In this document: in pieces, positions 3,569-44,658 of the stretch | Layout of the letters: each line of letters starts with the position of its first letter | How positions within the stretch are numbered: the first letter of the stretch is position 1 | Source of the DNA: an uncultured Prevotella sp. | GTDB taxonomy: Bacteria; Bacillota; Clostridia; Christensenellales; UBA1242 | Length of the DNA: 53,721 bases | Direction: 5' to 3' | NCBI GenBank assembly: GCA_964638195.1 | Contig: CAZXAV010000001.1 | Location: forward strand, 1-53,721 | Program-made: the position numbers and the translations under genes | Notes under the pieces: generated by a model | What the model was told of the DNA's origin: nothing | Databases searched by the model: none | The model's input: only the letters and a program-made list of their open reading frames with translations

Positions 3569-6500
3569 TTATGCCGCGGTCTTTTCCTTTTCTTTGCCCC
3601 AACCGTTGGCATAGACACCGTCACCCAAAGATGCACCGTCCACGGGTGACTTGGTACCGTCATAGTTGTTCCAGAAGTTGGTCACCAAGTAGGTTTTCTT
3701 GACTTCGGTCACACCATCACGTTCCCCTTCCCCGTCGTAAAATTCTTGGAAGTTGCAAATCCAATCCGCTTGTCCGTTCTTCGCCCAGTATTTCATGTAA
3801 TTGAAGTAACCCGCGTAACCATTGGTTTCGGAATAAACCGATTTAATCATTTTGCAGGCTTTTTCAAAATAATCGTACGGAATATATAATTGGGCATATT
3901 TTTTCTCTGGCACATCTTTGATGGTGTACTCGTGGTGTCTGGTCCATTTAATGAACCACCATCCCACGGTATACGGGACACTATAATTAACGTTACTGAT
4001 TTTGGTTTCGTCAAGTGGTAAATAATAACAAGTATTATTCTTGTCTCCAGTATCCTCTGCCGACTTAAAGCCCGCTTTTCGAGTAATATTAGCAAACCAA
4101 CTGGGCAAATCATAAACATCAGATGCAGGTTGATAGCCCACGTATTGCGCCCAACGAATCATGGCATAGGCGGCGTGGCTGGTATCGGTACATTTTTGGG
4201 GAGTGGGTTTATTTTCATACACGGGATTGCCGTTTGCGTCAACTTCTGGCGTTTTTCCATCCTCTTTCATTTTCGGAATCATTTCGCCTTCCGCCAAACC
4301 ACCACAATACAAAGTACAAGCCTTAGCAAATCGTTCGTCTTGAATCAAAGTTTGTGCTTGACCAAAAATCGAATCGACATTATCCAAGCGCACATAACGG
4401 GTTTCGACTTCGCGGAAGTTATAGCGTTCATTGTATTCAAAGCGTTCTTGATAGGGACGTTGATAATCTTCGGGCATCGGGTATTTACAATTGTCATCAT
4501 ATTCATTTTTGTTGTCGACTTTTTTGGTGGTTTGATTTTCACCTTCGCCAACCGTCATATCGGGAATTGGCCAGTCATAATATTTCAGCATGTTCCAATA
4601 GTAATTATCACCATAATTGTCTTTATGATCTTTATAATCCTTGGTACCTTTATAATAATTCAAGGTATAGTTTTTATCAATCAACGTACCCGTTTCTTCA
4701 TCCGACGTTTGTTCACCACTGCTGTAAATTTTCGGGAAGACCGTGGTGCTGATTTGACGTTTGTAAATGGGGGCAACAATCGGGTCTTGTCCCGCGGTTG
4801 AGTTACCAAGTTTTGCCAAATATTCCACGTTGTTTTCGTATTTTTCCATGCGTTTCCATACCGCAAACGCGTCAATGGTCAACCAACCATCGGTTGAGGT
4901 CATGGTTTTGGTCTCACCAGTTTCTTCGTTGGTGTATTCGTATTCACCACGTGCCGCCAAGTACTCGTCACTGTTCGCGTAGATGTTAATCCATTCGCAA
5001 TAATCACGGTAAGTCATAAACGGGATACCGCCTTTGTTGAACCAGTCACGACGGTAGATAATCAAATCCGTTGTACGGTCACCTTGGGTGACACCTTCAT
5101 AGAAAATGTCGGTACGTACGGTTTGGTCCAAAACCCAACGGAAATCGGTAGCACTGTCGGCGGCACCAAAGAATTCGTCTTGGTCCAATTGCTTGCTGAC
5201 GTAATAGACGTAATGGTTCAAACGGAAATATTTGTCCAATTCTACGTTTGTCGTACCTTGTTTAATCACCTTATAATAATACTTTTGTGCCCAAAGGATG
5301 TAATCCGCGGTGGTATGTTCAGATTTCAACAAGGTCAAGAATGCCTCGCGGTCCGAACCAAATTCCATTGCCTCCGCCAATTCATTTTCCGTGGTCACTT
5401 TTTCCAAGAATTCCATTGACCTAGCAGCATATGGGAATGGTTTGCGGAAAGGTGTGTTTTCCACGGGAAGACCCGCCGAAATGGTGGCGTTATCAATCAC
5501 GGTGGTGTTTTCGGCATCCTTGTTGTACAGTTTCAAGAAGACCAAATAATCGGCATAGGTACTGTTCCAGACACCGTTCACGAAACGCGAACCCAAAACG
5601 ATTTTGGTGTATTCATCGGTGGTGAATGGGTCATTGACACTGGCATTGGCGAAACCAGATTTACCGCCGCCCTTATCTTCGGGCATATCCGCAGTCCAGT
5701 CGTCCGCCAAAGTGTAACCAGTTTTACGGTAAGTATACGGTTTTTCGCCACCCGTTGCCAAGACGCGGCTGTCGACGGGGATGGTTTGGGTCATGGCATG
5801 GGCTTTAATTTGGTCAAAGTTTTCGGCGCTGAAACCTTGGTGACGCCACCACAGGACTTCTTCCAAGTAATCGGAGTAATTGGCGCTTGCGTCTTGGCTG
5901 TTATCCGCAATCGTAACGACACGGTTCAAGGTCGGCATAATTTGACGGACAATCTTATAGTAGCCGTTGACATTGCCAGATTCGTCTTTGGAATAGAAAT
6001 CGGGTTCTTCGTTGGCTTCGACTTTGTAAAGCAACAAGATGTCTTTATCGGCGCTACGCGAAGACAATTCACCACCCGTGCTTGAATACACCGCTTTACC
6101 GAACATTTTGTTACCGTCAATATCCACGTACATGGCGGCACCACGATCTTTGGAGATGTCTTCGGACAATTCAATCAAACTGCCCACGGTATAATAGATT
6201 GCACCATCACCGTTGAGGAACTTTGCATTGGGGGTGGTATTAAACGACCAGACACCAACCGGTTCACCCGTCGTCCATTTAGAATCGGAATTGACGTCCG
6301 AAATCCATTGACCTTGGTCAAGAATTTGGGCAGAAGTTTGGTAAACGGCACGGACGTTACCATTGCCCGCAGAACTCAAAATGTTGCCATATGTCGTTGC
6401 CGACAACGCATATTGGAAATCGTACATACCGTCGTCACGTTTGAAGTATTGACGGATAAAGTCGACTTGTTGAGACGTCCAGTGGTATTGTTCGCATTTC

Positions 6501-7880
6501 AATTCAAAGATGTAATTATCAACTGCATCCCATGACGGTGTACGTTTCAACAACGCGTTCAAGCTGCCGCCCATACCAATCATTTCTTTGTATTTGGCAA
6601 TCGACAAACCGTGGCTGATTTTCGCGCTTAAATAGTTTTCCAATGCCGTCCAGTGGTTGTCACCATAAGAAATCACACCATTTTCCGAAACCACTTCGTC
6701 AGCCACCAAGTACCAACCTAAGGGGTCTGAAATCCATTTCAAGGTAATACCACCAATATCACTGATACGCGCACCACCGCCGCCTTCTGACGCCAAATGA
6801 CCGGTTTTGACCCATGCTTCTTCATTTTTCATTACGACCGCTTCTTCGTTTGCCATCATGAAGATAAATTCTGGCACGGTCAACAACATACCCGACGAAG
6901 TTTCCATCATTGAATTCAAGTACAGATACGACACATAGCCTTTATCACCCGTTGCCGGGAAATCGCGCGGCACGGAGTAAGTGTAAGACACCGAGGTTGC
7001 CGAAGTCTTGTCAGTATATTTGTAATCGGTTTTGCCGTACATATGGGTCATGTAGTAATAATATTGCGCCAAGGACATTTGCCAACCGCTGTTGACACGG
7101 AACGCGTTGTCTTCCGAATCCAATTCGTTCACGTAGTTAATGTAAATTTGCAAGGGGTCTTGGTTGGTGTATTGTTTACTGTCGGACATGTTTTTGACCA
7201 ATTCGATAAAGTCTTTATTGTTGGAAATCCTGATATTGCCGTCTTGCGCGGTGTATTCGACCGCCAAGGCGTACGGGTATACCATGTCCGCCAAACGGGT
7301 GCTGTACTTACTTGCCAAAGCACGGTACAGGTTGGTGTATTCCGTGGCTTCCATATCTATCGCACTGGCGAATTGTTTGAGCACCAAATAGTTTTCGTAT
7401 TGCGTCCATGTGAAGTTAGCATTTTGTGTGCCCGCAATGGTTTGACTGTTGGTAGTAACGTTATATTGATAAGTGAAGAGTACTTGCGCAATCGCACGAC
7501 GGTTGGCACGGTAAGTTTCAATGTTTTTTACAAATTCGTTTTCGCTTTCACCGTCTTCGCCGTTGCCTGCGGGTCGGGTGCTAATCGCGCTGTATTCAAT
7601 GTAACGTTCGTAGTTACCCGCAGCCCTGCCTTTCAATGCGCTGTGGGCGGTATCCCAAGTTTCAAAGACATTGTTATCGTTAATCCATTTCAACAGTTCA
7701 TTTTTGCCGTTGGGTGCAAATTTTTCCACACGCACATCTTGTCCGTCGATGGTGTTCGTGCTCAAAGTTGTGGGAATACTGCGCAACCATGGTTCTAACA
7801 TTTCCATGCGGGTGACCAAATCTCTGGTTTTGATGTAGGTCAACAAGTAGTCACGATATTCGTCAATCGTCATGGTTTGG
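3569..7880 (-). other. C-terminal ~1,440-aa non-repetitive, W/Y/D/E-rich region of the giant protein (no domain recognised)
   Basis: The region runs from '...TMTIDEYRDYLLTYIKTRD' (about nt 7880) to the stop. I see no internal periodicity. Aromatic content is high, for example 'YYYYMTHMY', 'WWRHQGF', 'GWWFIKWTRHH' and 'DNYGDNYYWNMLKYYDWPIP'. Confidence 0.5.
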
Positions 7881-24085: not shown

Positions 24086-24127
24086 ATGTTTTCCCCCAAT
24101 GTTTTTCTTCTATTCTAGTATGTATAA

Positions 24128-24156
24128 ATTATATTTTTTATATGACGGACAGTCAA
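24128..24156 (-). promoter_or_regulatory. Near-consensus sigma-A promoter of the 6,838-aa gene (TTGACT-17-TATAAT)
   Basis: On the minus strand, TTGACT is at 24156-24151, followed by the 17-nt spacer GTCCGTCATATAAAAAA and TATAAT at 24133-24128. It lies in the 86-nt gap between stop 24172 and start 24085. GGGGGA SD follows downstream. Confidence 0.7.
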
Positions 24157-27792: not shown

Positions 27793-27813
27793 ATTAAAAT
27801 GCTGAAAATCCAA
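27785..27813 (-). promoter_or_regulatory. Promoter TTGGAT-17-TATACT for the CPBP-CPBP-tadA-DUF4097 unit (leaderless geometry)
   Basis: On the minus strand, TTGGAT is at 27813-27808, followed by a 17-nt spacer, TATACT at 27790-27785, and 7 nt to ATG 27777. There is no SD. Confidence 0.45.
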
Positions 27814-28587
27814 ACGTTAAGTAGCGGCAGCGCGGGTAACATCACCTATGTTGGCAGTGCAACCACGGGCATTTTGATTGATGTCGGTTTACCCTTATCA
27901 ATGACCCTTAAATTGATGGGTCAAGCCAACATTGACCCACATTCGATTACGGGTTTGGTGATTACCCATGAACACAGCGACCATTTGAAAGGTGTTGCCG
28001 ATTTTGTCACGCAATACAATGTCCCGATTTATTGTTACGAACGCAGTGCCAAAATTTTACGACGCAGTTTGAAATTACCACCCCACCACTTTGTTGAAAC
28101 GGACAGCACTTTTGACATCGGTGACATTACGGTCAACTGTTTCCCCGTACCACACGACAGCCAATTTTGTTTAGGTTATACTTTCCAATGCGGTAATTCC
28201 ACCGTGGGGATTGCAACGGATATCGGTCAAATGACGGACACTATTCTTGCCAACTTAGCGGCTTGCCAAATTGTGGTTTTGGAAAGCAACCACGACATTC
28301 AAAAACTGATGGCGAACCCAAAGTACCCCGATTGGTTAAAACGTCGCATTCTCGGTAACCGCGGACATTTGTCCAACCTTGATTGCGGACGCACGATTGC
28401 GAAACTATACCAAGCCCACGTATCCCAAGTTATCTTAGCGCATTTAAGTGAAAAGAATAACACCCCCACTCTGGCTTACCAAACCGTCAAACAATACTTA
28501 CAAACCCAAGGAATTACCGAAGGCAAAGACATCTACATTGACGTCGCCATGCAAAGCCAAATTGGTAACTGCTACTGCTTAGAATAA
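27799..28587 (+). CDS. MBL-fold metallo-hydrolase (YycJ/WalJ-like)
   Basis: The ORF is 262 aa. The start 'MLKIQTLSSGSAGNITYV' and the 'THEHSDH' metal-binding motif match the YycJ-type length and N-terminus. Confidence 0.8.
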   Translation: MLKIQTLSSGSAGNITYVGSATTGILIDVGLPLSMTLKLMGQANIDPHSITGLVITHEHSDHLKGVADFVTQYNVPIYCYERSAKILRRSLKLPPHHFVETDSTFDIGDITVNCFPVPHDSQFCLGYTFQCGNSTVGIATDIGQMTDTILANLAACQIVVLESNHDIQKLMANPKYPDWLKRRILGNRGHLSNLDCGRTIAKLYQAHVSQVILAHLSEKNNTPTLAYQTVKQYLQTQGITEGKDIYIDVAMQSQIGNCYCLE

Positions 28588-31500
28588 TTATTTAGTTGTC
28601 ATCTTACGGCGCATACGCATGAAGACCAAGATACCAATCCCCACAACACCCAACACAACCGCTAAAATCACATAGCCAAAGGTGCTTTGTTGTGCGTTGA
28701 CTGTCCAAGTGTCCATATGGACATAATCGCCGTCCGCATCACGAACCATGACGGTATATAAACCCGCATCCGAGACACTGAATAACGCTTGCGAATCAAC
28801 ACCTGCGGTTGCCAAGGTGCTGCTGTCCACAGTGACCGCTTGTTGTTCAACAAAGTCTTTGTACAAATAAATCATAACCGTACCTTGCGCATGGTACAAC
28901 CAATACGGGTTGTAATACAACGTGACCGTCCCCGTGGTGGCAGTTCCACTGCCGCTGCTGAGTACGAAATAACTGCTGGCACTGTTGGCTTTGTGTTGGA
29001 TGTTAAATTCCACCACGTGCGTAATGTAAGTTTGCAAAATCGCATTGTAAGTTTGTAAAGTAATGGTGTAGCTACCGGGGTTTTCGTCGGCACTGAATTT
29101 CATATAATCATTGACTTTCAAATCATCGAAGTCATGAATTTTGTAGCCGTTGCGTTTGACCGATTCCACTTTGATATCAGGATAAATCGGCATGCTGAAT
29201 GATTCACGAATCGTATAAGACGGCACAATTTGGAATTGGTATTCGGATTCCAACAAATCCGAAATATTTGAACCAATGCTGTACGATACTTTGACACGAT
29301 AGTTACCACTCCTGTTCCAATAGAACGAAGTTTGTGAACCATTGACTTGATATTCTTCCATGGTTTCGCCATTGGACCCCGTATAACGCACTTCCATTTT
29401 GGTCACGCAGAATTGTTTGTTAAAAAATTCTTTATCTTCTTTTAATTTGTCCGCATAAAGTTTGGTCAAGAAAGTATTACCATAATCAACCAATTTCATT
29501 TCGACTTGGTCGTTGTAAACCATGCCGTTAACGGGTTGCTTGTCGTTAATCAAAATCATAGGTTTGGTCATTACCGCCAACATGTAACGTTTTTGACGAT
29601 ATAAGATATCACTTTCGTCACTGCTGTTACCGAAGTACAAATAGTTGCCAACCAAATCATGGACAGTAAATTCGTAATACCCCGCATCATAACGGTTAAT
29701 CGTAAAGACATCACCATAATTCAAAGTCTTCACCAATTTTCCGTTGTAATAGCAATCGACCAAAATCAAATTACCTTCAACCAAATAACACGGTGCCCCA
29801 AACGCATCACGCAAAACTGACATGTCGCAGTACAAACTGACTTCCAATTTGTTGTCATGTGCGGTCATGAAACTGTCGCGGATAATGTGATAAGTCGTGG
29901 TATTGGGGACAACTGGGAATGGCGTAAGGCTGGCACTGCCCGATGAAGACGGATTACCATTTAAGCGCAAGGTGATGGCGGTACCGCTGTTCAATTCCCC
30001 ACTGGAAACACCCGTCGTAGCGAAATAAATGGGACTGGTGTAAATCGGTTCACCGTTCTTTTGTCCGCTTAGGAATGCCAAGCGCCAAACTAACGTTTTA
30101 TTCGGTTCATCGTAATAGTAATAATCTGTACCCAATTCCGTGTTCCCCGCCAAGACGCGGTTAGTTTGACCAACCCGAATTTCCAAACCATGGGCTTGAT
30201 AATTGAAAAGCGGATAGAAGATGCCATTACTACTTTCCATGGTGGTGAAAACGTAACGCGGGATATAAGTGTATTCGTTCGTGTTATTGCGATCGGGATA
30301 GAATTTATAATCACTGGTGCTGGCTTGAATTTGTTCGCCATCGTCATAAACCAAAACCATGGTGTTATCAATTTGGACAATTTCAAATTTATAAGTTTTC
30401 TTCGCCCACACTGCATTACGCAACGTTACTTCATAAGCACCGACTTGGTCGAAAGTGAATTTTTTGGTATCGGGTCGCAATGTCACGCGTTCCGTTTGAC
30501 CATCCAAGGTACGCACGTAAGAAACGGTAACTGGGAATGCGGTCGGCACAAGATTTTTGCTGATGTCGAAAATTACGGCACTGACAAAGGTTTGGTCTTC
30601 GACTTCAATCGTTTGGTCACTGGCATTTTTCCATTCCACATTGGGCAAACGGGTGTCAAAGACAAAGGTCTGGTCAAACAGAATTGCCCCACTGGCACGT
30701 CCAGTCGCAACAATGTGATATTGTTGAAGCGTGGTTGAACCTTTTTTCGGAGTAAAGGTATGAGAAATCATGTTGTTGCTGATAAACGATTGCAAATCAC
30801 TTAACAATTCGTCTGTTGCGGCATCATAAATTAAAACTTTGTAAACTGTACTTAAATAGCTGAATTCCACCCCACGTTCATCACCGATGTAAATCACACC
30901 GTTTTGGGTGATGGTGTTACCATAAACATTGAAGTTAATGGTACGTTGTGATTGTTGGTGATATTCGGTCGTACTGACGCGTCCAAAGGGGTCGGTAACG
31001 GTGATGACCAATTCATGGCTGACATCAAAACCTTGGATTGGGGTACCCGCTTTTAATGAGAAATAAGTATCCATGTTCGTACCCGCCGCAGTTCGGTCTT
31101 CAATTTTCATTTTGAAGAGTGCGGATAATTTTTCATCAAACAAGATTAACGGTAAATCGTCATAGTTAATGGCTGTTACCATGATAATGCTGCTAGTTTC
31201 ACTGGCTTGATAACAATCCAGTCGCAGGTTCGCTGCGTTTTCACGGATATTGTAGAATTCAAAAATTTCGGGTGCACCAATCCGGTCGTACAACGTATAC
31301 GAACAACTGACACCTTTTTCGGTCGCAACGTTGATCCAATTATTCAAAGCCTTGATCAAGTTTTCTTCGCTCTTAGGTCCTGTACCCGTGTCATTGCCAA
31401 TGTGCCAACTGGCGGTGCTGCCCAACACGGTGTAATATTCGTCACCACTGACAAATTTGAAAGAATTGTTACGCAAGAAGAATTGGTGCACACTGGAACT

Positions 31501-36528: not shown

Positions 36529-36556
36529 TCGTAGTCCCCCAACATAGTATGGTTAA

Positions 36557-36585
36557 ATTATAATTTTAATATTTGATATCGTCAA
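36557..36585 (-). promoter_or_regulatory. Near-consensus sigma-A promoter of the 2,646-aa gene (TTGACG-17-TATAAT)
   Basis: On the minus strand, TTGACG is at 36585-36580, followed by the 17-nt spacer ATATCAAATATTAAAAT and TATAAT at 36562-36557. It lies in the 72-nt gap after the T4CP stop (36601). GGGGGA SD is 6 nt before ATG 36528. Confidence 0.7.
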
Positions 36586-36600: not shown

Positions 36601-38595
36601 TTACCATTCAAATAAATCGTGACGTTCAGCAGTATTGACACGGCGAATGATAATATCATTACGACGGTGGATGTCATAATAGATGGCTGCTTCATCAAAA
36701 TACTTACCCGGGATATAGATGTCTGGCGTCGGCAACAATTTAATCGCACCCTTATTGATACATTCGTAGAACAAGGTGACCTTACTGCGCAACGGGTGAA
36801 AGGTAAAGCAATACACGAAGATATTACCCGGCACAATATCCAACAATTCATTGGGTGGCAACAACGGACGACTGGCGGTATTGGTTGCGGTTGATTTACT
36901 GCCCCCTTCGGAGTCTTCCTTGGCGGCTTTACCCGTGTTACGGCTGACGGTCGTGCTTTCCGTGGTGATTTCCATGTCCCCCATCAAGTCAGAGAACATC
37001 TTACGTGTATCCGTGTCGTTAACACCGACGAAAACTTGGTGGTTACAGTTGTTACGCACCGTTACGGCGGTCTCTGCCCCGTACGTGGTTTCCAACTGTT
37101 TGTAATCTTGCAAAACCAAGGTAAAGAAAATGCGGCGCGAACGGGAAACCGTAATCACGGTCGCGAAATCGTTAATCTTCGGCATGTTACCAAATTCATC
37201 CAACACGAAGTACGTCGGCCACGGTAATTTTCCGCCGCGTTCGTTCGCACTGGCAACCAAGGATTTATACAATTGCGAAATGCACAATGTTGCCAACGGA
37301 TGACGGACTTTAATTTGGTCAGGAATAATCAAGAAGAACGCGGTTGGCTTTTGTGCAAAGTCTTCAAATTTGATGTCAGTTCCACTGGTGATGTAGCAAA
37401 TACCTTTATCGTTGAACATGGACAATTTTTGGGTTGCAATCCCAAAGAAGTTACGCATGGTGTTTTCAGCATTCGCCGTAACGGTTTGGGCTAACGAAGC
37501 CGCCACCGACAATTTGTCACGACCTTCAAAATAGTTCTTAATCGTTTTGAACATGGCTTGTGGGTCGTTATCGCGAATCGACAGAATTTTGAAGATATTA
37601 TAGAAGTTAAATTTTTCACGGGTCATACCCAAATTCGGGTTCAAGCTGTCTTCCAACATTGCCATCGCAGTACCTTGAATTAAGTCACGTGCGCCCTGTT
37701 CCCAACTGGGGTCCTTTTCATTTTCAATCGGACAAATTGCCGAGCAGATGTCTTTAATGTCGGCTTCGGAATCCGAAATCAACTGTTGGCGTAAAGTACG
37801 CATTTCATTTTCCGCCATATCTTTGTTCGGGAAAGCAATCCCGTTGAAAGCGTACCAAACGGGCGGATACGAACTGGCAATCACACGGAGACCCATTTTA
37901 GCTGGGTCAGCATTTTCATAACGTTTAATTTCGCGTTCCAAATGTTGTGCCCGTTGGAACATATCCCATGGTCGTTCAAACGGATTCCAACGAGAACTGC
38001 GGATGGGGTCATTCAGGTTGAAGACTTGAACGTCATAACCTTGACGACGCAAACTTTCTGCCAAGGTATTGTAGATTTCCCCTTTCGGGTCGGTAATCAC
38101 CAAATTCGGTTTTTGGTTGGAAAAGCCCAACGTATATAAGAATGGGAACACATACCCTTGCGTTTTGGCGGCACCAGTTGTACCCAGAATAATCGAGTGG
38201 TAATCTTTCGGCACCATGTTAATGTGAATGTCACCCCCAATCAATTCAAAGCGTGCCAACGGTCCAGTCTTCTTCAAGGCAGCCAATTGTGAGCCTTTGG
38301 TGTAAATGTAAGTCTTATCACGTTCGACATCCGTCATCCAACGGTTGGAGTAATATTGGGAAACACCTTTCTTTTTTTTCTTTCCGTCAGTCTCCAAATA
38401 CTTGAACAAACCAAAGACCAACAGTCCCAAGGGAATCAACATCATCCCGTACTTAAAAAGATCATCGTTCAAACCAAGCGGACTGAATGTCGAACGTTGT
38501 GCCAACATATTTGATGCCGCCAACAAACACACCGCCAACACAACTAACCCACCAATAATGATGAATGCCCATTTCCCCAATTTTTGCATATTCAT
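36601..38595 (-). CDS. VirD4/TraG-family type IV coupling protein (T4CP)-like ATPase
   Basis: The ORF is 664 aa with two N-terminal TM helices ('WAFIIIGGLVVLAVCLLAA', 'MMLIPLGLLVFGLFKYL'). It has Walker A 'ILGTTGAAKTQG' (38161-38200), the signatures 'VITDPKGEIY' and 'RWNPF', and Walker B 'YFVLDEFGNMP' (37181-37215), followed by 'RSRRIFFTLVLQDYKQL'. This is the characteristic T4SS-DNA_transf/TraG-D layout. Confidence 0.8.
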   Translation of the reverse strand: MNMQKLGKWAFIIIGGLVVLAVCLLAASNMLAQRSTFSPLGLNDDLFKYGMMLIPLGLLVFGLFKYLETDGKKKKKGVSQYYSNRWMTDVERDKTYIYTKGSQLAALKKTGPLARFELIGGDIHINMVPKDYHSIILGTTGAAKTQGYVFPFLYTLGFSNQKPNLVITDPKGEIYNTLAESLRRQGYDVQVFNLNDPIRSSRWNPFERPWDMFQRAQHLEREIKRYENADPAKMGLRVIASSYPPVWYAFNGIAFPNKDMAENEMRTLRQQLISDSEADIKDICSAICPIENEKDPSWEQGARDLIQGTAMAMLEDSLNPNLGMTREKFNFYNIFKILSIRDNDPQAMFKTIKNYFEGRDKLSVAASLAQTVTANAENTMRNFFGIATQKLSMFNDKGICYITSGTDIKFEDFAQKPTAFFLIIPDQIKVRHPLATLCISQLYKSLVASANERGGKLPWPTYFVLDEFGNMPKINDFATVITVSRSRRIFFTLVLQDYKQLETTYGAETAVTVRNNCNHQVFVGVNDTDTRKMFSDLMGDMEITTESTTVSRNTGKAAKEDSEGGSKSTATNTASRPLLPPNELLDIVPGNIFVYCFTFHPLRSKVTLFYECINKGAIKLLPTPDIYIPGKYFDEAAIYYDIHRRNDIIIRRVNTAERHDLFEW

Positions 38596-38622
38596 ATTGT
38601 TTATATAATAATTGAGATTATG

Positions 38623-39426
38623 TTAATTAGGCAACTTGATTTTTTGTAAATCGGTCAGTAACGCTTGCAACAAAGTCACTTTCAAAGAACGACGTGCGTC
38701 ACCTTGCGTTTGAGTGCCAAACATCTGCCATTGCCCCGCGTGCGCCAAGGTGTCACTGAAAAACACAAATTCGGCGAACCGCAGTCCCAACCGTTGTGCC
38801 GCCGCCGCAAAGCCCGCACATTCCATCTCTACCACAACTGCCCCTTGTGCACGACGTTTCGCCGAGCGGGCTGTCGTTTCACGGAACAACGCATCGGTCG
38901 TCCAAGTGATACCCCGCACCACATTCATGCCGCCGCTTTGTAAAAACTTTTCCACCCAAGCGGTCAACTGCGGATTGGTTTCGACATAGACCGATGGTGC
39001 TAAGTAATGGTAACTGGCACCTTCGTCGCGAATGGCTTTCTCGATGAGCACACACGCATCATCGGCAATCTTTGCATCCAACAACCCCGCTGTGCCATAA
39101 GCAATGACGTTTTCAATGCCTAAGTATTTCAATTCTTCGATGACCGCCGTTGCAACAGGGCTGCCCACCGTCATTAAAACAATCAAACATTGGTCACGGT
39201 ATTGGTAAATGGGAATCTTGCCCGAACGACCGTAAACGTAATACAACAAACGACAATCTTTCAACACTGGCTCTAAAAAGGCACGGTCAATGTTTTCGCA
39301 TAAAAACGTACAAATGGCAGTCTTAATCGGCACGTCCAATTTGACTTGCTTTTCCGCGTGCATCGCACGGGGCGTAATGATTGGTTCGTCGTCAAAGAAC
39401 TCGGTAATCGGTGGCAACTGCTCCAT
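38623..39426 (-). CDS. Nucleoside phosphorylase (PNP/UDP-1 superfamily)
   Basis: The ORF is 267 aa. The central 'GTAGLL' and 'VVVEMECAGFAAAA' motifs are typical of the PNP_UDP_1 fold. The start ATG shares one base with the upstream Ppx stop (TAATG at 39424-39428). It is visibly more GC-rich than its neighbours. Confidence 0.65.
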   Translation of the reverse strand: MEQLPPITEFFDDEPIITPRAMHAEKQVKLDVPIKTAICTFLCENIDRAFLEPVLKDCRLLYYVYGRSGKIPIYQYRDQCLIVLMTVGSPVATAVIEELKYLGIENVIAYGTAGLLDAKIADDACVLIEKAIRDEGASYHYLAPSVYVETNPQLTAWVEKFLQSGGMNVVRGITWTTDALFRETTARSAKRRAQGAVVVEMECAGFAAAAQRLGLRFAEFVFFSDTLAHAGQWQMFGTQTQGDARRSLKVTLLQALLTDLQKIKLPN

Positions 39427-40925
39427 TACAAAATTTCCACGTTCTTTTTATAAATTTTGGTAAACTCTTTGCCTAATTTTTGTAATTGGTAAATTTCGGT
39501 CTTAGCGGCATCAACATCAACCTTCATTTTCTTCATGTCGGTTTCGGTAATCAATTTAATAATGACACTGTCACCCAACACATCACATGAAATGTCTTTC
39601 ACCACTTTTTGGTTACGTAAATTGATGGTGTATGCCATTGCTTCGATAATTGCCAACTTACGCACGGCTGCCAAATCTTCTTCGTTCATTAGGTCTTTAT
39701 ATTTGACCCATTCTGATAACATGAAGTCGTCCCAGTTGCGGCAACTGGCAACAAAGGCTGCCATGACGATTTCTTTGTGGCTTAAACCGTACAAGTTCGC
39801 GTTCAAAATTGCGTAGTAGGTAATCTTGTCAAAATTTTGTTTGTTGATGTTTGCGCCCAAATTAAACAGCAAGGTTGCGACTTTCAAAATGCGGGTAAAC
39901 GCACGGGGCAATTTGTGTAAGACTTTTAATTGCATGTACAACGTGCTGGCTAAGAAGTATTGGTATTTCGCACTGTCTAAATCCAAGTTGTTCGCCCAGA
40001 TAATGGTCTCCACACTGTTCAAGCAAACATCGTTGACGGGCTTGTCATCTTCTTGCATCGTCAAATGATGAGCAATCCCCACGTTACGTCCGTGGCGGTT
40101 AATAATGATTTTAGTTAAGTTGGTATAGTCCATGACCGCCAAAGCAATTGACATCCCGTTCATTAAGTAACCGATACCATTCGCCGTAATGCCTTTTAAT
40201 TTAGCACCACGTTCCACGTCCAAGCCTTGCAAGAACGTCAAGATTTCCGCGAAGTGCGTTTTGTCACTGTTATAATTGTGATCCACATCAAACGGATATT
40301 TATTTTTCTTACGGGACAAACGCGCAAAGCCCGTAAAAATTTCGCTGGAACCAATCACAGGGATTTCGGGGTCAATTTGTTGGAACGGCTCACCCGCCGC
40401 TTTCAACAAGTTGTTAAAGTCTTCCACCGAAGTAAAGTTCGCCGCGCCCATCGGAATGGTCGCACTGTTCAAAATCACACGGCGGCAATAATAGACCAAA
40501 CGCGTACTAGAAGTAGAAACCGCAACAATCAAACCTTTCGCAATGTCAATCGTATTAACCACGGCGGTATATAAGGTATTGATTTCTTCTTCTTCGCTTA
40601 ACAATTTGAATTCCAAGTCCAAATCCGAATTGATTTCTTCCAAGAACGAAATGTAGTTCTTGGCGGCGGTCAAGTTGGCAGATGCCACACAGTGATATTT
40701 AGACACACCATTGGCAATTGCTAACTGTTTATACATTTGTAAGATGTTGATACATTCTTTAATTTTAACAGTTTTAATCAATTCGCTGTTGGCTTGTAAA
40801 TGTTGTTCAATCCCAACGTTTTCCGTGTATTCTTTTTCAACTTCAAAATACTTACTTTCTTCAATGCGCACAATCGACAATTTAATTTGATTAGTGCCTA
40901 ACTCCATAATTGCAACTTTTGTCAT
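39426..40925 (-). CDS. Ppx/GppA-family phosphatase (exopolyphosphatase-like)
   Basis: The ORF is 499 aa. The N-terminal 'VAIMELGTNQIKLSIV' resembles the Ppx-GppA 'iDiGSNS.rL.i' phosphate-1 motif. Also present are 'CVASANLTAAKN' and 'EEEEINTLYTAV', with an HD-like helical C-terminal half. The match is divergent. Confidence 0.55.
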   Translation of the reverse strand: MTKVAIMELGTNQIKLSIVRIEESKYFEVEKEYTENVGIEQHLQANSELIKTVKIKECINILQMYKQLAIANGVSKYHCVASANLTAAKNYISFLEEINSDLDLEFKLLSEEEEINTLYTAVVNTIDIAKGLIVAVSTSSTRLVYYCRRVILNSATIPMGAANFTSVEDFNNLLKAAGEPFQQIDPEIPVIGSSEIFTGFARLSRKKNKYPFDVDHNYNSDKTHFAEILTFLQGLDVERGAKLKGITANGIGYLMNGMSIALAVMDYTNLTKIIINRHGRNVGIAHHLTMQEDDKPVNDVCLNSVETIIWANNLDLDSAKYQYFLASTLYMQLKVLHKLPRAFTRILKVATLLFNLGANINKQNFDKITYYAILNANLYGLSHKEIVMAAFVASCRNWDDFMLSEWVKYKDLMNEEDLAAVRKLAIIEAMAYTINLRNQKVVKDISCDVLGDSVIIKLITETDMKKMKVDVDAAKTEIYQLQKLGKEFTKIYKKNVEIL

Positions 40926-40931
40926 AGTGCG

Positions 40932-40960: not shown

Positions 40961-41028
40961 GACCTTACGCAAAAGTTTTTTTCTTGCTAAAAGCGGCGAT
41001 TTTAGTGTAGACTATCCTTTATAGGTAG

Positions 41029-43716
41029 ATGGAGAAAATGATAATGAAGAAGTTCTGTAAATTGATGGCACTGGTCTTGGTAATGACCTTACTTTTGTTC
41101 ACCCCCAGCACGGCTGTGGCGGTTAGTAGTTTGGCAAAAATCGCACCCGCCGATACATCCGATCGATTTGCTGCTCCATCACAAAGCGCTGCACCCTTTG
41201 ATTTCGTTGCTGTCGATACATATGATTTAGCCAATTGGACAAAACCGAGCGGTACTTATCTCATCTCCCAACAACTGACCGCCGAGAACAATAACAAATT
41301 CTACGAAGAACACAAAGAAAACACCTTAAAAGACCTTTCGGGTCACACGCCCTATGTCATTGCTTCCACAACCAGTATGCCCGCAAGCGGTGGCTACACC
41401 ACCAATGCCATCACCTTGGCTGCTAACGGCTGCTATAAAATTTCGGTGGAATATTGCGTCGTCAAACAAAAAGATTCCGCTGTAAAAGTTGGTGCTTTTG
41501 GTACTTTCTATTTGAACGACGAAGCCATCACCCTACCAGAAAACAATCACGTTTGGAGTACAGCGGTCTTTTACGTCCGTACCGACCAATTGGAAACGGC
41601 AACCGTCACTCCCGAATTATATTTCGGTTCACGTCAAGAAAATGCCTTAGGCTCAATTTATTTTGACAAGTTCACCGTCAATGCCGTCAAACAAAGCACC
41701 TTTGACCAAGACGTTGACGATCCTAACCGTGACCGCAGTAAAACTTATTACCTTAACTTCACCAACAACAGTGCCCATATCTTGGAAGCAGGTGATTTCG
41801 CCAACGAAAAATTTACTGGTATCACTACCGCGAACGCAGACTACAGTAACAGTATTTCTACCGCTGAACTGCCGACCAATTTAGGTTTTCAAAGCGAACA
41901 ACCCTACTTTTACGCCAAAGACAGCGTCACGAGCAACGTAATGTTATTAAAAGCCAACAAATCTGATGTCACGGTAACTTTACAAGATTACACTTTCAAA
42001 CCACGTCCCAACGAAGCGTACATGTTCCAATTCTACTCCATCGCCACAGCAACGGATGATTTTAGCGGTTTTTATTTCAAAATCGGTGACGATGCCCAAC
42101 AAATTACCAAAGTCAATAATTATCCTTACCATAATGGTTGGCAATTAAATACCGTCTTCTTTGTGGCAGGACGCGACTTGAAACAAGAATACACTTTAAG
42201 TTTTAGTTTAGGCAATGGCGGAACAACCACAGGTTGGGCATGTATCGACGATTTCCAAATCTATAAAGTCAACGGCAGTTATGCCACCAACAACCGCGCC
42301 GCTGTTGGCGTTCATAATACGATTGACAAAAATGACACCGACACGGTCTTAGATATTCCCAATGGTTATTTTGAATTAGGTACCGCCGCCGACAATGTCA
42401 ACAAAGACAGCAGTTACCCTTACCCGTTGGTTGCCAACGATTGGACCACCAACACCACCACGAACGGTATTGTCAATTTGCATGCTTCATTGTGGCACGA
42501 CCGTTTCGGTGACAACCCCGGTTCAATTAACAACAACAGTTATTTCGATAATAATCATGTCTACATGATGCACAATGCTGAACGCACCATCAACGTGCTG
42601 ACCAGCCCCGCACTCACGACCACCAATGACGCCACCACTTACGTCTCATTTGATGCTTATAGCAATCTGGCAACAGAAACCCGTGCTTACATTTTATCGG
42701 CGGAAACCGATGATGACGGTAACATGTCCAACGAAATTATCTTAGGCAACTACATCGACATTAACGACAATGGTTGGCATCATTACGAATTTAACATTGT
42801 CGAAGGCGCCTACGCCAACACGCGTAACTATTACTTACGTTTCGTCATGAAAGGCATTGGTTACGCCTACATTGATAATGTCCGCACCACGACCGATGGG
42901 GCTTTCCAAAATGCTTCCGCAGCACAAACCACTTCGGCAGACGTTGACTTAACCAATCCGTTGGCAATTGAAGACCTTTGGCAACCCACCGACGGAATCA
43001 AAGAAAATGCTTGGATTCATAAAACTAACGATGGCTTGAAAATCGAAAACGTCAACAAGCAAAAGACTGTCGTTCAAAATGCTTTCGCCTACAATTTGAC
43101 TGCCGACGATTATTACGAAGTTGTCATCAGCGCGTACGGCAAAAATGCGTATCTTGGTTTCAGCAGTTATGACGGCTTGTTAGAAGTCACCACCGACAAG
43201 TTAGACCCCGAAATGTTATCTGATTACAAATTGTACATCCACCCCAGTGAGGGTGCGACCGCGGTCAATTTCCAAGTGACTGTGGGTTACGTTGGTGACG
43301 ACACCGACACTGCCCCCATTGCCGACGGTAACATTTTTATCAGCAGTATTGAAATTAACAGCATCGACGAAGACGACTTCAATAACGCCAAAGAGAACGC
43401 CACCAGTGACTCACGTTTGAAAGTTTTATCACTGGCGGAAGAAAACGACGACGACAATGATATTGTCTACAACGAACCCGACAACAACTTCTTTGGTGAA
43501 AACTGGTGGTATTTAATTCCCACCTTGATTACAGCAATTGCTTTGCTTTTGGCGATTGCAACTTTCTTGTTCCGTAAGATTAAATTTGAAAAACACATTA
43601 CCAAGAAAACGACTTCTTACGCCCGTGATATGCGCATGAAAAATCAACACAATAAAATTGTTGCCCAAAAGGCCGCAAAAGTAGATAATGTAACAGATGA
43701 GCCGCAAAGTAAGTAA
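41029..43716 (+). CDS. Secreted, C-terminally membrane-anchored protein with four jelly-roll/CBM-like modules (about 890 aa)
   Basis: The signal peptide is 'MKKFCKLMALVLVMTLLLFTPSTAVA'. The likely start is ATG 41044, 9 nt after GGAG. Four modules each end in a CBM-like terminal strand ('IYFDKFTVNAV', 'CIDDFQIYKV', 'AYIDNVRTT', 'IFISSIEINSI'). An acidic linker 'EENDDDNDIVYNEPDNN' is followed by the TM segment 'WWYLIPTLITAIALLLAIATFLF' and a roughly 50-aa basic cytoplasmic tail. Confidence 0.75.
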   Translation: MEKMIMKKFCKLMALVLVMTLLLFTPSTAVAVSSLAKIAPADTSDRFAAPSQSAAPFDFVAVDTYDLANWTKPSGTYLISQQLTAENNNKFYEEHKENTLKDLSGHTPYVIASTTSMPASGGYTTNAITLAANGCYKISVEYCVVKQKDSAVKVGAFGTFYLNDEAITLPENNHVWSTAVFYVRTDQLETATVTPELYFGSRQENALGSIYFDKFTVNAVKQSTFDQDVDDPNRDRSKTYYLNFTNNSAHILEAGDFANEKFTGITTANADYSNSISTAELPTNLGFQSEQPYFYAKDSVTSNVMLLKANKSDVTVTLQDYTFKPRPNEAYMFQFYSIATATDDFSGFYFKIGDDAQQITKVNNYPYHNGWQLNTVFFVAGRDLKQEYTLSFSLGNGGTTTGWACIDDFQIYKVNGSYATNNRAAVGVHNTIDKNDTDTVLDIPNGYFELGTAADNVNKDSSYPYPLVANDWTTNTTTNGIVNLHASLWHDRFGDNPGSINNNSYFDNNHVYMMHNAERTINVLTSPALTTTNDATTYVSFDAYSNLATETRAYILSAETDDDGNMSNEIILGNYIDINDNGWHHYEFNIVEGAYANTRNYYLRFVMKGIGYAYIDNVRTTTDGAFQNASAAQTTSADVDLTNPLAIEDLWQPTDGIKENAWIHKTNDGLKIENVNKQKTVVQNAFAYNLTADDYYEVVISAYGKNAYLGFSSYDGLLEVTTDKLDPEMLSDYKLYIHPSEGATAVNFQVTVGYVGDDTDTAPIADGNIFISSIEINSIDEDDFNNAKENATSDSRLKVLSLAEENDDDNDIVYNEPDNNFFGENWWYLIPTLITAIALLLAIATFLFRKIKFEKHITKKTTSYARDMRMKNQHNKIVAQKAAKVDNVTDEPQSK

Positions 43717-44239
43717 GTTAATTATTGTCTTGGTTGTGGTTGCCATCATCGCCGGTGTGGGTGTTGGCTTGTATTTCCATTACAACCAAGGACCAATTAT
43801 CGGTCGCATTCAATTTGGTCAAAAATATTATTTAACGGAAATTCGTGACACCGAACGATTTGCAGGTGCGACAATCAGCCGTGACAGTTACTTTCAAATT
43901 AACCCAGACAAACAAACTGGCAAACTTTGCTTGGTTGGTTTAACCGCCACCACAACCACGAATCATGATGGAACTACCACTACTGCTGCCATTCCCTTTA
44001 TCGTCACCAACTATAAAGAAGGGGTGAAAAACACCGTCATTGATTTTGAATACATTATTGACAACGGTGAAAAGACCCAAATTCAACACTTACAAGCCAT
44101 CAGCAATAATTCCGAAATTCGCATTAAAGCGGTTGAACCACACAACGTGCAAGTCATTCAACAAAACCCCGACAAAAACTTAACTGAACTCAATTACGCG
44201 GTCACCATTTTGGTGTTCGCAGCAAAGGAGGCGGAATGA
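43697..44239 (+). CDS. Single-pass membrane protein, hypothetical (180 aa)
   Basis: The N-terminus 'MSRKVSKLIIVLVVVAIIAGVGVGLYF' is a signal anchor. The gene overlaps the upstream gene by 20 nt and the downstream gene by 4 nt (ATGA), which looks like an operon. Confidence 0.55.
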   Translation: MSRKVSKLIIVLVVVAIIAGVGVGLYFHYNQGPIIGRIQFGQKYYLTEIRDTERFAGATISRDSYFQINPDKQTGKLCLVGLTATTTTNHDGTTTTAAIPFIVTNYKEGVKNTVIDFEYIIDNGEKTQIQHLQAISNNSEIRIKAVEPHNVQVIQQNPDKNLTELNYAVTILVFAAKEAE

Positions 44240-44658
44240 TGAGACGTCGTGGTGTCAAGATTGCCATTATTTGTGCCATCATTGCCGTGTTGCTGATTGG
44301 CGGTGGTCTAATCATTTATTTTAGTTTCTTTAATAAAACCGTTTACCACGTGACTGGTGTTGACAAGACCGACTACACCGTTGCCGACTTTAAGGCAAAC
44401 TCCGAATTAGAATTTTACAAAAACGGCACTTTCCGTATCCGCATTGAACACAAAGATAAAGGCTTATCCTTAACGGGAATTGGGACTTATACTCTGGATG
44501 GCAAAACTTACCAATTGACCTTTATTCAAGCATTCGGACGTGACACCAATGACCAAGTAGTCAATATCATCGACCAATGCGACAAGATTACTTGCACCCG
44601 TTCGGGTAATCGTATCAAGTTCACTGACCACAAAACACAAACCTTTTATTTTGGGTAA
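44236..44658 (+). CDS. Single-pass membrane protein, hypothetical (140 aa)
   Basis: A strong SD (AAGGAGG) lies upstream. The N-terminus 'MMRRRGVKIAIICAIIAVLLIGGGLIIYF' is a signal anchor, and the ectodomain is beta-rich. Confidence 0.6.
   Translation: MMRRRGVKIAIICAIIAVLLIGGGLIIYFSFFNKTVYHVTGVDKTDYTVADFKANSELEFYKNGTFRIRIEHKDKGLSLTGIGTYTLDGKTYQLTFIQAFGRDTNDQVVNIIDQCDKITCTRSGNRIKFTDHKTQTFYFG

Follow-up and report, generated by a model that had tools for sequence, protein, structure and literature searches.

Mating-pore gene clusters of the MPF-FATA class offer precedents for the locus analysed here. In ICEA, contact between donor and recipient requires CDS5 (TraG), CDS15, CDS16 and CDS17 together with a surface lipoprotein (PMC6030558). 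Patescibacteria carry a chromosomal MPF-FATA type IV secretion system (T4SS) that has VirB2-like pilins and lacks a relaxase (PMC12102498). Our window, the whole 53.7-kb contig (53,721 nucleotides), comes from an uncultured Christensenellales-like gut Clostridium, and the region lies in the core chromosome. It encodes a type IV coupling protein (T4CP) followed by a giant surface protein, G2, as well as further envelope proteins and housekeeping genes. We consider it somewhat probable that the region brings together separate modules in a lineage-specific arrangement, and that the T4CP and G2 constitute a chromosomally fixed, ICE-derived secretion/contact module whose surface fibre is G2. L-numbers (L006, L010 and so on) label the related contigs and loci that were compared with the window.

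All genes that an earlier, sequence-only reading had listed in a 41-kb neighbourhood were recovered at their positions, and the sizes and strands hold for every ORF listed (Table 1). That reading had also noted no mobile-element genes, and a contig-wide search agreed: no integrase, transposase, relaxase or VirB4 and no tRNA or Rfam element was found on the 53.7-kb contig. GC content was uniform across the window. Between the window and its relatives, the identity of envelope proteins was about 38-60%, against about 84-92% for neighbouring genes; every envelope protein diverges far faster than its neighbours.

Table 1 Features of the 53.7-kb window.
Feature	Position	Strand	Remarks
G1, 6,838 aa	3569..24085	-	N-terminal TM at residues 6-24; TTG start
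G1 promoter and leader	24116..24156	-	near-consensus; same motif as 5' of G2
o519, N-terminally anchored beta-rich protein	24172..25731	-	one TM helix, residues 14-32
tadA-like tRNA adenosine deaminase	25741..26187	-	PF14437, PF00383; housekeeping
CPBP intramembrane protease 1, 358 aa	26133..27209	-	PF02517, E = 2e-19; CPBP/Rce1-like
CPBP intramembrane protease 2, 204 aa	27199..27813	-	PF02517, E = 3.7e-18; CPBP/Rce1-like
MBL-fold (metallo-beta-lactamase) hydrolase	27799..28587	+	PF12706, PF00753
G2, 2,646 aa	28588..36528	-	signal-like N-terminal helix, predicted Ig-like beta-sandwich string, C-terminal TM anchor
G2 C-terminal module	28591..28701	-	QSTFGY motif, TM helix, 8-residue basic tail RMRRKMTTK
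G2 promoter and leader start	36545..36585	-	near-consensus sigma-70-type; 11/12 hexamer positions, 17-nt spacer
T4CP, VirD4/TraG-type coupling protein, CD1115 family, 664 aa	36601..38595	-	PF02534, PF12696, PF10412
Deviant Walker A of T4CP, GTTGAAKT	38161..38184	-	Gly before Lys replaced
PNP/UDP-family phosphorylase and Ppx/GppA phosphatase	38623..40925	-	housekeeping
G3, 895 aa	41029..43716	+	signal peptide, C-terminal TM, 48-aa cytoplasmic tail
o180 and o140, two single-pass membrane proteins 3' of G3	43697..44658	+	

The T4CP scored 283 bits against NF045973 (cutoff 250) and has two N-terminal transmembrane (TM) helices (residues 10-28 and 46-64). In an alignment, T4CP relatives at least 76% identical to it carried GAAKT, GANKT or GSSKT at Walker A, and all other aligned T4CPs (<76% identity) carried G[SAT]GK[TS]. 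The P-loop glycine has been lost in the window's genus; Walker B (DEFGN) is kept despite the deviant Walker A. No Pfam domain and no BLAST-detectable internal repeat was found in G1 or G2. AF2 models of G2 residues 1-1000 (pLDDT 80.9) and 1647-2646 (pLDDT 83.5) showed strings of all-beta domains plus the terminal TM helix, and Foldseek searches with these models returned tandem Ig/FnIII/MG arrays and S-layer proteins. As a type-I surface protein, G2 has a long ectodomain, predicted to consist of highly diverged Ig-like beta-sandwich domains strung one after another; its C-terminal motif is juxtamembrane. The tails of the G2 family follow the pattern R-x-[KR]-M-[KRT]-[IVT]-[KR]$, with an invariant cytoplasmic length. 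This C-terminal TM and basic-tail signature was present in 29 of the 1,270 ORFs of all fetched loci, every one of them a G2-family member or, where the contig was long enough, directly downstream of a T4CP; under the positive-inside rule, a basic tail after a TM helix is to some extent expected of any membrane anchor. The carriers that are not giants are 700-750-aa proteins in L046 and L050, each immediately 3' of the T4CP.

Within a large chromosomal T4CP clade, many subclades show the T4CP-then-G2-family order, and an NJ tree spreads the pairs over them; T4CPs of different pair-bearing subclades share only 32-47% identity. Giants of 2,485-2,903 aa lie 164-566 bp 3' of the T4CP and share its strand in L010, L011, L019, L020, L023, L026, L045, L053 and L065. 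Variants of the T4CP-adjacent giant occur in L016 and L024, and shorter versions (1,500-1,830 aa) in L059-L061. The T4CPs of the giant-bearing loci are 38-46% identical to that of the window, and a G2 profile HMM (two rounds) gave collinear matches to giants beside such distant T4CPs (E 0 to 1e-66), with the C-terminus best conserved. Among congeners the T4CP is 89-91% identical, on a par with the uvrA-like gene and ppx, whereas G2 is only 46-60% identical. The same contrast was seen in every other pair tested, suggesting purifying selection on the T4CP and fast divergence of G2. In distant loci, unrelated housekeeping genes follow the G2-family giants. Where enough flank was available, about half of the T4CP loci lacked a giant next to the T4CP, which makes the pairing frequent, not obligatory; at these loci the partner giant may be located elsewhere in the genome. 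The placing of the T4CP beside G2, which the sequence-only reading had listed, has thus proved to be a deeply recurring linkage, with giants homologous by profile HMM and a specific tail signature. The adjacency suggests that the two proteins may interact, and we regard the pair as the one deeply conserved functional unit of the region.

Distant T4CP-G2 pairs usually stand head-to-head with Mycoplasma-ICE-type mating-pore genes, namely a pilin-like gene, an Mbov_0396-like gene and VirB4. In the relatives, c1 matched NF045975 VirB4_plasma (568 bits, below the cutoff of 590) and PF19044, c3 matched NF045848 (94.9 bits, cutoff 90), and c2 matched the pilin-like NF045849 (23-33 bits, below the cutoff of 40) and, weakly, PF18895. 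The order of the pore genes is identical to Mbov_0395-0396-0397. Core genes flank these pore-gene/T4CP clusters (spoVT, pth, mfd, leuS, nrdDG and trxB; also engB, PFOR, recO, minDE and mreB). No relaxase, integrase or other mobility gene was seen around the clusters, where a relaxase unlike known families could escape detection, and several of the ORFs nearby gave no match in Pfam. To our knowledge, a canonical relaxase has not been identified in mycoplasma ICEs either. No pore genes were found anywhere on the window's 53.7-kb contig. The pair probably has its origin in a type IV secretion cluster of the Mycoplasma-ICE type (MPF-FATA), which has become chromosomally fixed in the clade; besides the T4CP and a surface protein, this cluster probably comprised a pilin-like gene, an Mbov_0396/MMCAP2_0566-like polytopic protein and an Mbov_0397-family VirB4. 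The description of the T4CP as an orphan is accurate for the contig; its ancestry in a T4SS cluster is clear, and relatives still have that cluster intact.

G1 and G2 had been proposed to share a promoter and leader, and this was confirmed. The window contains exactly two copies of the motif TTGACn-N17-TATAAT-TTAnnCATACTA, one directly 5' of G1 and one directly 5' of G2, with 0 matches to the extended motif expected in shuffled sequence. The motif is kept 5' of the orthologues of both giants in at least six related contigs (G2 side: L006, L008, L009 and L091; G1 side: L086, L087, L088 and L091), which points to co-expression of G1 and G2. G1 has no Pfam or PDB match and no recognisable domain; its orthologues (6,763-7,116 aa, 33-47% identity) occupy the same position in L086-L088, and the TTG start is kept in L087. 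The gene o519 is always the upstream neighbour of the G1 orthologue. It had been called DUF4097-like: the window protein has no Pfam match, but PF13349 was found in 3 of 37 aligned family members and one homologue carries the NCBI name DUF4097, so that o519 is possibly toastrack/DUF4097-like. The label of G3 as CBM-like found no backing, with no match in Pfam, NCBIfam or PDB sequences, and G3 is not a G2-family member. In congeners, G3 is 47-53% identical and o180 and o140 are 43-61% identical. Neither o519-G1 nor G3-o180-o140 was found outside the window's family; both add further fast-evolving envelope proteins. The distant loci already suggest that the presence of G1, o519, CPBP and G3 does not depend on that of T4CP-G2. 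PNP and Ppx (73-90% identity in congeners) are absent beside the T4CP in other clades; they are neighbours outside the T4CP-G2 module. As for the proteases, CPBP 1 has intact EExxxR, FxxxH and HxxxN motifs that are invariant in the family alignment, and CPBP 2 is 71-75% identical in congeners. L097, L099, L104, L107-L113 and L116 carry the arrangement [MBL]-CPBP-CPBP-x-tadA with no giants, and in distant relatives neither giant nor T4CP accompanies the CPBP block. MBL-CPBP-CPBP-tadA is a separate, older synteny block, which would stand between the giants by chance.

The whole neighbourhood could instead form one organelle, with G1, o519, both CPBPs, G2, the T4CP, and G3 and its partners co-expressed. 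Synteny of the whole block holds in all relatives down to about 44% o519 and 63-69% T4CP identity, the giants have a conserved promoter and leader in common, accelerated divergence is common to all the envelope proteins, and a CPBP pair lies about 7 kb from a T4CP in L021, L027 and L102. However, ppx, pnp, the uvrA-like gene and tadA are equally syntenic in the window's family, so synteny at that depth carries no functional signal. Moreover, deeper relatives have CPBP-CPBP-tadA without giants, and T4CP-G2 without CPBP, MBL, G1, o519 or G3, and neither G1 nor G3 is detectably related to the G2 family; we regard a single organelle as quite unlikely. Of the 41-kb system that had been proposed, the T4CP-G2 linkage and the G1/G2 promoter stand, and the CPBPs, MBL, o519-G1 and the G3 group drop out as parts. 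The suggested comparison of synteny and co-occurrence in relatives likewise showed T4CP-G2 to be deep and the other genes to be family-confined or independent. It is very unlikely that the tandem CPBPs process a tripartite, myxosortase/CTERM-like C-terminal signal of G2 (perhaps also of G3). G2 does end in a motif, a TM helix and a basic cluster, as CTERM sorting domains do, and CPBPs with intact catalytic motifs adjoin it in the window's family. Their NCBIfam similarity to MrtS, MrtJ and Mrt_core is weak, with Mrt-family scores of 20-27 bits, far under the cutoffs of 75-130. The CPBP pair also lies beside tadA in lineages without an adjacent giant, no CPBP is found 3' of G2-family giants in distant clades, and the extreme C-terminal tail of G2 is conserved, which argues for an anchor that is kept, not removed.

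The adjacency of T4CP and G2 might also reflect nothing more than inherited gene order, with the two functionally uncoupled; G2 would then be a conventional Sec-exported adhesin or S-layer-like protein, and the T4CP would serve something unrelated, for example DNA transfer or chromosome handling. G2's own strong promoter sits in the 72-bp gap between the genes, so that co-transcription with the T4CP is not needed; its signal-like N-terminal helix would be enough for Sec export, and many T4CP loci have no adjacent giant. Such neutral linkage is nevertheless unlikely, because the pair outlives the loss of all other neighbours (leuS|T4CP-G2 in L010, ppx-pnp-T4CP-G2 in the window) and because the TM and tail module is kept 3' of the T4CP even where the ectodomain is down to about 700 aa. 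There is very little chance that the T4CP is the relic of a decaying integrated conjugative element, with the giants as cargo or former mating adhesins. The conjugation-family origin of the T4CP, the ICE-type pore genes of its relatives and the degenerate Walker A of the window's genus would fit a relic, but the high identity of the T4CP among congeners, the uniform GC content, the lack of integrase, transposase and relaxase on the contig, and a chromosomal context unchanged across species speak against it.

In the reading that we prefer, a fixed T4CP-G2 secretion/contact module, G2 would act as the contact or adhesion fibre of a T4SS-derived apparatus, and its conserved TM helix and tail would dock beside the T4CP at the membrane or cytoplasmic face. 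We propose that such docking would couple surface contact to the secretion ATPase, physically or through regulation. Given the non-adjacent pore genes and the lost P-loop glycine, the T4CP of the window's genus may serve G2 mainly as a structural or adaptor partner. G1 would be co-expressed with G2 through the common strong promoter type. The role proposed for G2 would be analogous to that of the ICEA CDS14 lipoprotein or to that of the surface adhesins of Gram-positive conjugation systems.

The window carries the genes listed in the table below. Its GC content is even (41-47%), an island signature is absent, and no tRNA, Rfam family or mobility gene was detected in it. The gene map and the absence of mobility genes thus bear out the gene inventory of a sequence-only reading, which had proposed a single cell-surface system here; two of its labels fared less well. 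No usable match was obtained for the three anchored surface proteins G1, G2 and G3 or for o519 and o328 (ORFs named by their length in residues) in Pfam, NCBIfam and PDB sequences. "CBM-like" for G3 is unsupported: neither Pfam nor NCBIfam returned a CBM for it even at E ≤ 10, and PDB sequences gave no match. "DUF4097-like" for o519 is a weak label: the window protein did not match PF13349 even at E ≤ 10, but 3 of the 37 aligned family members did (best E = 1.2e-6). A PDB profile search with o519 also gave no match. All-against-all BLASTP detected neither internal repeats nor mutual similarity among G1, G2 and G3; by composition, G1 looks similar to G2. As listed, the tadA ORF starts at a GTG, measures 148 aa and shares 55 nt with CPBP1; since the relatives' gene calls put tadA at 130-135 aa, its true start probably lies further downstream.

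Features of the window, with amino acid identity to congeners and rate class
Feature	Position	Strand	Description	Identity to congeners (rate)
recD2	upstream end of window		housekeeping	
o328	adjoining recD2		328 aa	
G1	3569-24085	(-)	6,838 aa, single N-terminal TM	38-47% (fast)
o519	24172-25731	(-)	N-terminal TM	51% (fast)
tadA	25741-26187	(-)	housekeeping	81-83% (slow)
CPBP1	26133-27209	(-)	Rce1-like protease	57-75%, both CPBPs (intermediate)
CPBP2	27199-27813	(-)	Rce1-like protease	57-75%, both CPBPs (intermediate)
MBL	27799-28587	(+)	hydrolase	84-88% (slow)
G2	28588-36528	(-)	2,646 aa, signal-like N-terminus and C-terminal TM	46-60% (fast)
T4CP	36601-38595	(-)	VirD4-type coupling protein	89-90% (slow)
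PNP, Ppx	38623-40925	(-)	housekeeping	ppx 87-90% (slow)
G3	41029-43716	(+)	895 aa, signal peptide and C-terminal TM	47-53% (fast)
o180, o140	43697-44658	(+)	single-pass membrane proteins	o180 43-50% (fast); o140 57-61% (fast)
MOP-family (Polysacc_synt) flippase, yetF, DUF4363	3' of G3-o180-o140; set spans 41029-47188	(+)		
UvrA-like ABC ATPase	47181-49745	(-)	854 aa, UvrA paralogue with UvrA_inter domain	90-92% (slow)
sigH-rlmB-mrnC	adjoins uvrA paralogue		Firmicute cluster	

More than 70 relatives of the coupling protein T4CP were found at 56-91% identity, several in MAGs named Christensenellaceae, Clostridia or Firmicutes. Three congeners (loci L006, L008 and L009) keep the order uvrA-like ... 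flippase-o140-o180-G3 / ppx-pnp-T4CP-G2-MBL-CPBP2-CPBP1, and in L086-L088 and L089-L096 it runs on through tadA-o519-G1, the G1 orthologues there measuring 6,763-7,116 aa. Congener genomes include GCA_018384735.1 and GCA_016283155.1. Because housekeeping genes are equally syntenic at that depth, this conservation says little on function, and the contrast in rates is more informative. The envelope proteins all diverge several-fold faster than their neighbours, as expected for exposed surface molecules under diversifying pressure; their fast divergence makes it likely that G1, G2, G3 and o519 determine interactions with hosts, phages or other bacteria. The G3-o180-o140-flippase-yetF-DUF4363 set is syntenic in congeners, with G3, o180 and o140 evolving fast and the flippase and yetF not. 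In more distant members of the family, G2 and MBL are separated by a gene of about 290-300 aa without a Pfam match (c29; L001 20337-21242, L003 10435-11325, L088 922-1794), which neither the window nor its congeners have.

The association of T4CP with G2 extends much further. A scan with the T4CP alignment against one genome per GTDB species returned 80 loci, and a same-strand ORF of 2,485-2,903 aa lies 164-566 bp 3' of the T4CP gene in L010, L011, L019, L020, L023, L026, L045, L053 and L065. T4CPs of the distant giant-bearing loci are only 38-46% identical to that of the window. L016 and L024 are variants of this arrangement, and the giants of L059-L061 are shorter (1,500-1,830 aa). The distant T4CP-adjacent giants were not recognised by tblastn; a profile HMM built in two rounds from G2 and its nearer relatives matched them collinearly over nearly their full length, best conserved in the C-terminal ~400 residues, and did not match G1 or G3. 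In every locus pair compared, the giant was far more diverged than T4CP. A neighbour-joining tree of the T4CPs separated an ICE-like Bacilli clade without giants from a large clade with giant adjacency in many subclades. The idea that the whole neighbourhood travels together therefore survives in part: T4CP and G2 form a robust unit that recurs in distant loci, the association of the neighbouring G1-o519 and G3-o180-o140 is lineage-restricted, and the CPBP block is independent. We found no description of a T4CP-G2 module in Christensenellales in the literature. In L001 (GCA_009780065.1), a 344-aa protein (8437-9468, (+)) encoded two genes upstream of T4CP has ~60 C-terminal residues resembling ribosomal protein L7/L12 (TIGR00855, E = 1.7e-8).

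Proteins of the G2 family end in three parts: a short juxtamembrane motif, a TM helix of ~21 residues and an 8-residue tail, R-x-[KR]-M-[KRT]-[IVT]-[KR]. Most clades have (E/D)PLN[TA] as the motif; in the window's genus it is QSTFGY, the G2 of the window ending in ...NAQQSTFGY-TM-RMRRKMTTK. When the tail was searched as a regular expression among the 1,270 ORFs of all fetched loci, 27 of its 29 matches were G2-family giants; the remaining two (696 aa in L050 and 753 aa in L046) are each encoded directly downstream of T4CP. Judged from these sequences, ectodomain length varies about four-fold with anchor and tail beside the T4CP gene unchanged. The family is narrow, since the last 600 residues matched only 38 proteins among 1.84 billion cluster representatives, nearly all of 2,360-3,008 aa and aligned at their extreme C-terminus. 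As to the two short T4CP-adjacent proteins (L046 11814-14072 and L050 9578-11665), they have the LN-motif/TM/basic-tail ending of the 2,500-2,900-aa giants. Upstream, and on the other strand, lie a 2,053-aa ORF without a Pfam match in L046 and, in L050, a 2,014-aa ORF that clusters with the Mbov_0396-like family c3.

AlphaFold2 models of G2, made with 27-28 homologues, were confident, with a pLDDT of 83.5 for residues 1647-2646 and 80.9 for residues 1-1000. They comprise an N-terminal helix, a small alpha/beta region, an unbroken string of beta-sandwich domains and the terminal TM helix; these beta domains are too diverged for BLASTP to see internal repeats. With Foldseek the models matched tandem Ig/FnIII/MG arrays (alpha-2-macroglobulin, gp130, gp210) as well as mastigoneme and bacterial S-layer proteins (SbsB/C, Sap, HPI); with E values down to 1e-11 but a global TM score of ~0.1, these matches are generic and give the fold class only. 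Neither model returned an enzymatic domain, a T4SS-component domain or a head-domain identity by Foldseek. If the fibres are extended, their predicted length is about 100 nm for G2 and over 250 nm for G1. In all, a fold class and a family signature can now be attached to over 10,000 residues so far annotated as "hypothetical protein".

T4CP has the architecture of the VirD4/TraG CD1115 family (PF02534, E = 1.9e-49; PF10412, 2.1e-24; PF12696, 8.9e-31; NF045973, 283 bits against a cutoff of 250), with two N-terminal TM helices (hydrophobic segments at residues 10-28 and 46-64). An exact-sequence look-up returned no record. Its Walker A motif, GTTGAAKT (38161-38184, (-)), departs from the canonical GxxxxGK[ST]. 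Close relatives (at least 76% identity) read GANKT or GSSKT and all other members of the clade G[SAT]GK[TS], so that the P-loop glycine before the lysine is lost solely in the window's genus-level subclade. Walker B (DEFGN) is present, the remainder of the protein is highly conserved, and T4CP as a whole is 89-91% conserved. That three different residue pairs occur where the P-loop is normally invariant suggests a loosened constraint on nucleotide binding, though not on T4CP as a whole. The same subclade also changed the juxtamembrane motif and tail of G2; as a single evolutionary event, this joint change is weak evidence. T4CPs of the chromosomal clade end in a conserved YYDI..RN segment and a short acidic/aromatic tail (DLFEW, NPFDF or DDDDDLF; window 36601-36700), and ICE-type T4CPs of Bacilli end differently (DDQFFDDFF). 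We considered this tail as a marker of an adjacent giant and rejected it, as it is general to the clade and uncorrelated with giants. A plasmid origin was likewise rejected, since identity to T4CPs from plasmids does not exceed 27-29% and core genes abound in the window.

The claim that the two giants have a promoter in common held up. Within 23.9-41.2 kb, the two best sigma-70-like sites lie directly upstream of G1 and G2, matching at 11/12 hexamer positions with a 17-nt spacer. Each is part of a longer string, TTGACn-N17-TATAAT-TTAnnCATACTA, with a TTGGGGGA ribosome-binding site after it; the string occurs twice in the window and not once in 100 shuffles; across the whole window, TTGAC-N17-19-TATAAT occurs at these two sites and no others. 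The motif is kept 5' of G2 orthologues in L006, L008, L009 and L091 and 5' of G1 orthologues in L086, L087, L088 and L091. Given the string in the window and the same motif before orthologues, G1 and G2 have in common a conserved promoter type that is predicted to be strong.

Both CPBPs match PF02517, and the catalytic motifs EExxxR, FxxxH and HxxxN/D are invariant in CPBP1 orthologues. When the CPBP1 alignment was scanned against metagenomes, near relatives reproduced the gene order of the window, and distant ones (27-35% identity) showed [MBL]-CPBP-CPBP-(~165 aa)-tadA without G2, T4CP, G1 or o519 (L097, L099, L104, L107-L113 and L116). L021, L027 and L102 have T4CP and a CPBP pair ~7 kb apart and no giant; neither CPBP nor MBL was found downstream of distant G2-family giants, where unrelated housekeeping genes stand. 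CPBP pairs thus occur without nearby G2-family genes and G2-family genes without a nearby CPBP pair, and MBL-CPBP-CPBP-tadA is a deeply conserved syntenic unit of these Clostridia that demonstrably does not depend on the giants. In the window (25741-28587) the unit lacks its ~165-aa gene. That the CPBPs sort G2 through a C-terminal signal is a minority hypothesis. The tripartite C-terminus of G2 and the CPBP genes nearby in the window do recall CTERM sorting systems (myxosortases MrtP, MrtS and MrtJ; exosortase PEP-CTERM), but the window CPBPs score only 20-27 bits against myxosortase-type Mrt families with cutoffs of 75-130, and their linkage to G2 is not conserved. Anchoring by a sortase was rejected for G2: no LPXTG-like motif precedes its TM helix, a position held by PLN[TA] in the deep clade, and the window has no sortase gene.

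The neighbours of distant T4CPs point to the origin of the T4CP-G2 pair. These T4CPs typically stand head-to-head with a recurrent gene set: c2 (one to four membrane proteins of ~115 aa), c3 (a polytopic protein of 770-1,280 aa with a coiled-coil tail) and c1 (an ATPase of ~900 aa), with c14 (~500 aa) sometimes included. In L023, c1 matches the Mbov_0397-family ICE VirB4 (NF045975) over its full length, with 568 bits against a cutoff of 590, as well as PF19044 and AAA_10; c3 exceeds the cutoff for MMCAP2_0566/Mbov_0396 (NF045848, 94.9 bits against 90) and scores 60 against 70 for NF045889. The c2 proteins reach 23.5-32.9 bits against a cutoff of 40 for the Mbov_0395-family pilin-like NF045849, with a weak PF18895 match. 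The order c2/c3/c1 is the consecutive order of mycoplasma ICEs. The clusters are flanked by core genes in the same context across species (spoVT, pth, mfd and cobW-like; leuS; P-type ATPase, nrdD/G, trxB, engB and rumA; PFOR, PPDK, recO, minDE and mreB; ddl, radC and rubrerythrin). The mobile-element backbone of a mycoplasma ICE (DDE recombinase or integrase, relaxase, variable insertion site) was not seen in the related loci. No relaxase, integrase or transposase was found near the distant clusters; since several neighbouring ORFs have no family match, a relaxase of a novel type is possible.

The window contig, by comparison, has no VirB4, mating-pore or relaxase gene in its 53.7 kb, and nothing on it resembles c1, c2, c3 or c14. 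Pore genes are not adjacent to T4CP in the window's clade or in its relatives at 63-69% identity, nor are they nearby in a second lineage (L010, L014 and L018), arranged as leuS / T4CP-G2. As two lineages keep the pair without nearby pore genes, it outlasts the rest of the cluster, and the window's lineage is derived. T4CP and G2 probably derive from a T4SS cluster of the Mycoplasma-ICE type that was fixed chromosomally in Christensenellales-like Clostridia. As to mechanism, we infer that G2 is most plausibly the contact fibre, its conserved TM helix and tail being a candidate link to T4CP. A bolder proposal is that T4CP was exapted from conjugation as a dedicated cytoplasmic partner that binds the invariant 8-residue tail of the giant TM-anchored fibre, independently of VirB4 and the pore, and, in the window's genus, without a canonical P-loop. 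T4CP would then serve as an anchor, as an assembly or export factor, or as a contact-signal transducer for the fibre. We regard this proposal as improbable; if true, it would give T4CP a T4SS-independent function and, together with G1, establish a monoderm surface organelle of a new type in Christensenellales. These gut bacteria are abundant, health-associated and mostly uncultured, and to our knowledge their cell-surface biology is essentially undescribed. The pair of T4CP and tail offers a testable handle on the coupling of a secretion ATPase to cell contact.

Large surface proteins have been linked to monoderm conjugation before. PrgB of pCF10 is encoded with a monoderm T4SS and mediates cell-cell contact, and adhesins of its type have recognisable domains and are anchored by sortase through LPXTG; G2 differs in having neither an LPXTG motif nor a Pfam domain, and in being TM-anchored with a conserved cytoplasmic tail. 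The Hodor conjugative megaplasmids of gut Firmicutes encode co-transcribed giants of 7,309-7,704 aa and ~2,642 aa, predicted surface proteins whose sizes are strikingly close to those of G1 and G2 (PMC12934698). The Hodor giants are plasmid-borne, predicted sortase substrates with S-layer and MBG domains, accompanied by sortases (PMC12934698), whereas G1 and G2 lack both domains and lie amid core chromosomal genes. Compared by description, the two pairs were therefore judged not identical on domain content and context; they may be distantly related.

Mycoplasma ICEs (ICEA/ICEB; Mbov_0395-0397) are among the closest known systems. The window's relatives carry a candidate pilin-like, an Mbov_0396/MMCAP2_0566-like and a candidate Mbov_0397-family VirB4 gene in the same order beside T4CP, and in both systems a dedicated surface protein accompanies the pore. 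Transfer of the M. agalactiae ICEA requires CDS5 (TraG/VirD4), CDS15, CDS16, CDS17 (VirB4) and CDS14, a surface lipoprotein that promotes donor-recipient contact (PMC6030558). Here, however, the setting is core chromosomal, neither a DDE recombinase nor any other part of an ICE backbone was seen, and the surface partner is a TM-anchored Ig-like fibre of 0.7-2.9 thousand aa instead of a lipoprotein. The window retains T4CP and the fibre alone, and the VirB4 and pilin scores of its relatives lie below the curated cutoffs.

The closest published parallel is the MPF-FATA-type T4SS of Patescibacteria, which has been proposed to be co-opted for a non-conjugation purpose and in which no adhesin was detected (PMC12102498). 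That system is likewise monoderm-type, combines VirB4 and T4CP with VirB2-like pilins (PF18895), and is chromosomal and usually without a relaxase. The loci described here differ in belonging to Bacillota (order Christensenellales, going by the relatives' NCBI names) and in pairing T4CP tightly with a giant anchored surface protein, a pair that can persist without adjacent pore genes. A vertically inherited, relaxase-less, Mycoplasma-ICE-like T4SS remnant linked with a rapidly diversifying giant fibre would make these Clostridia the second bacterial lineage, after Patescibacteria, with apparently co-opted monoderm conjugation machinery.
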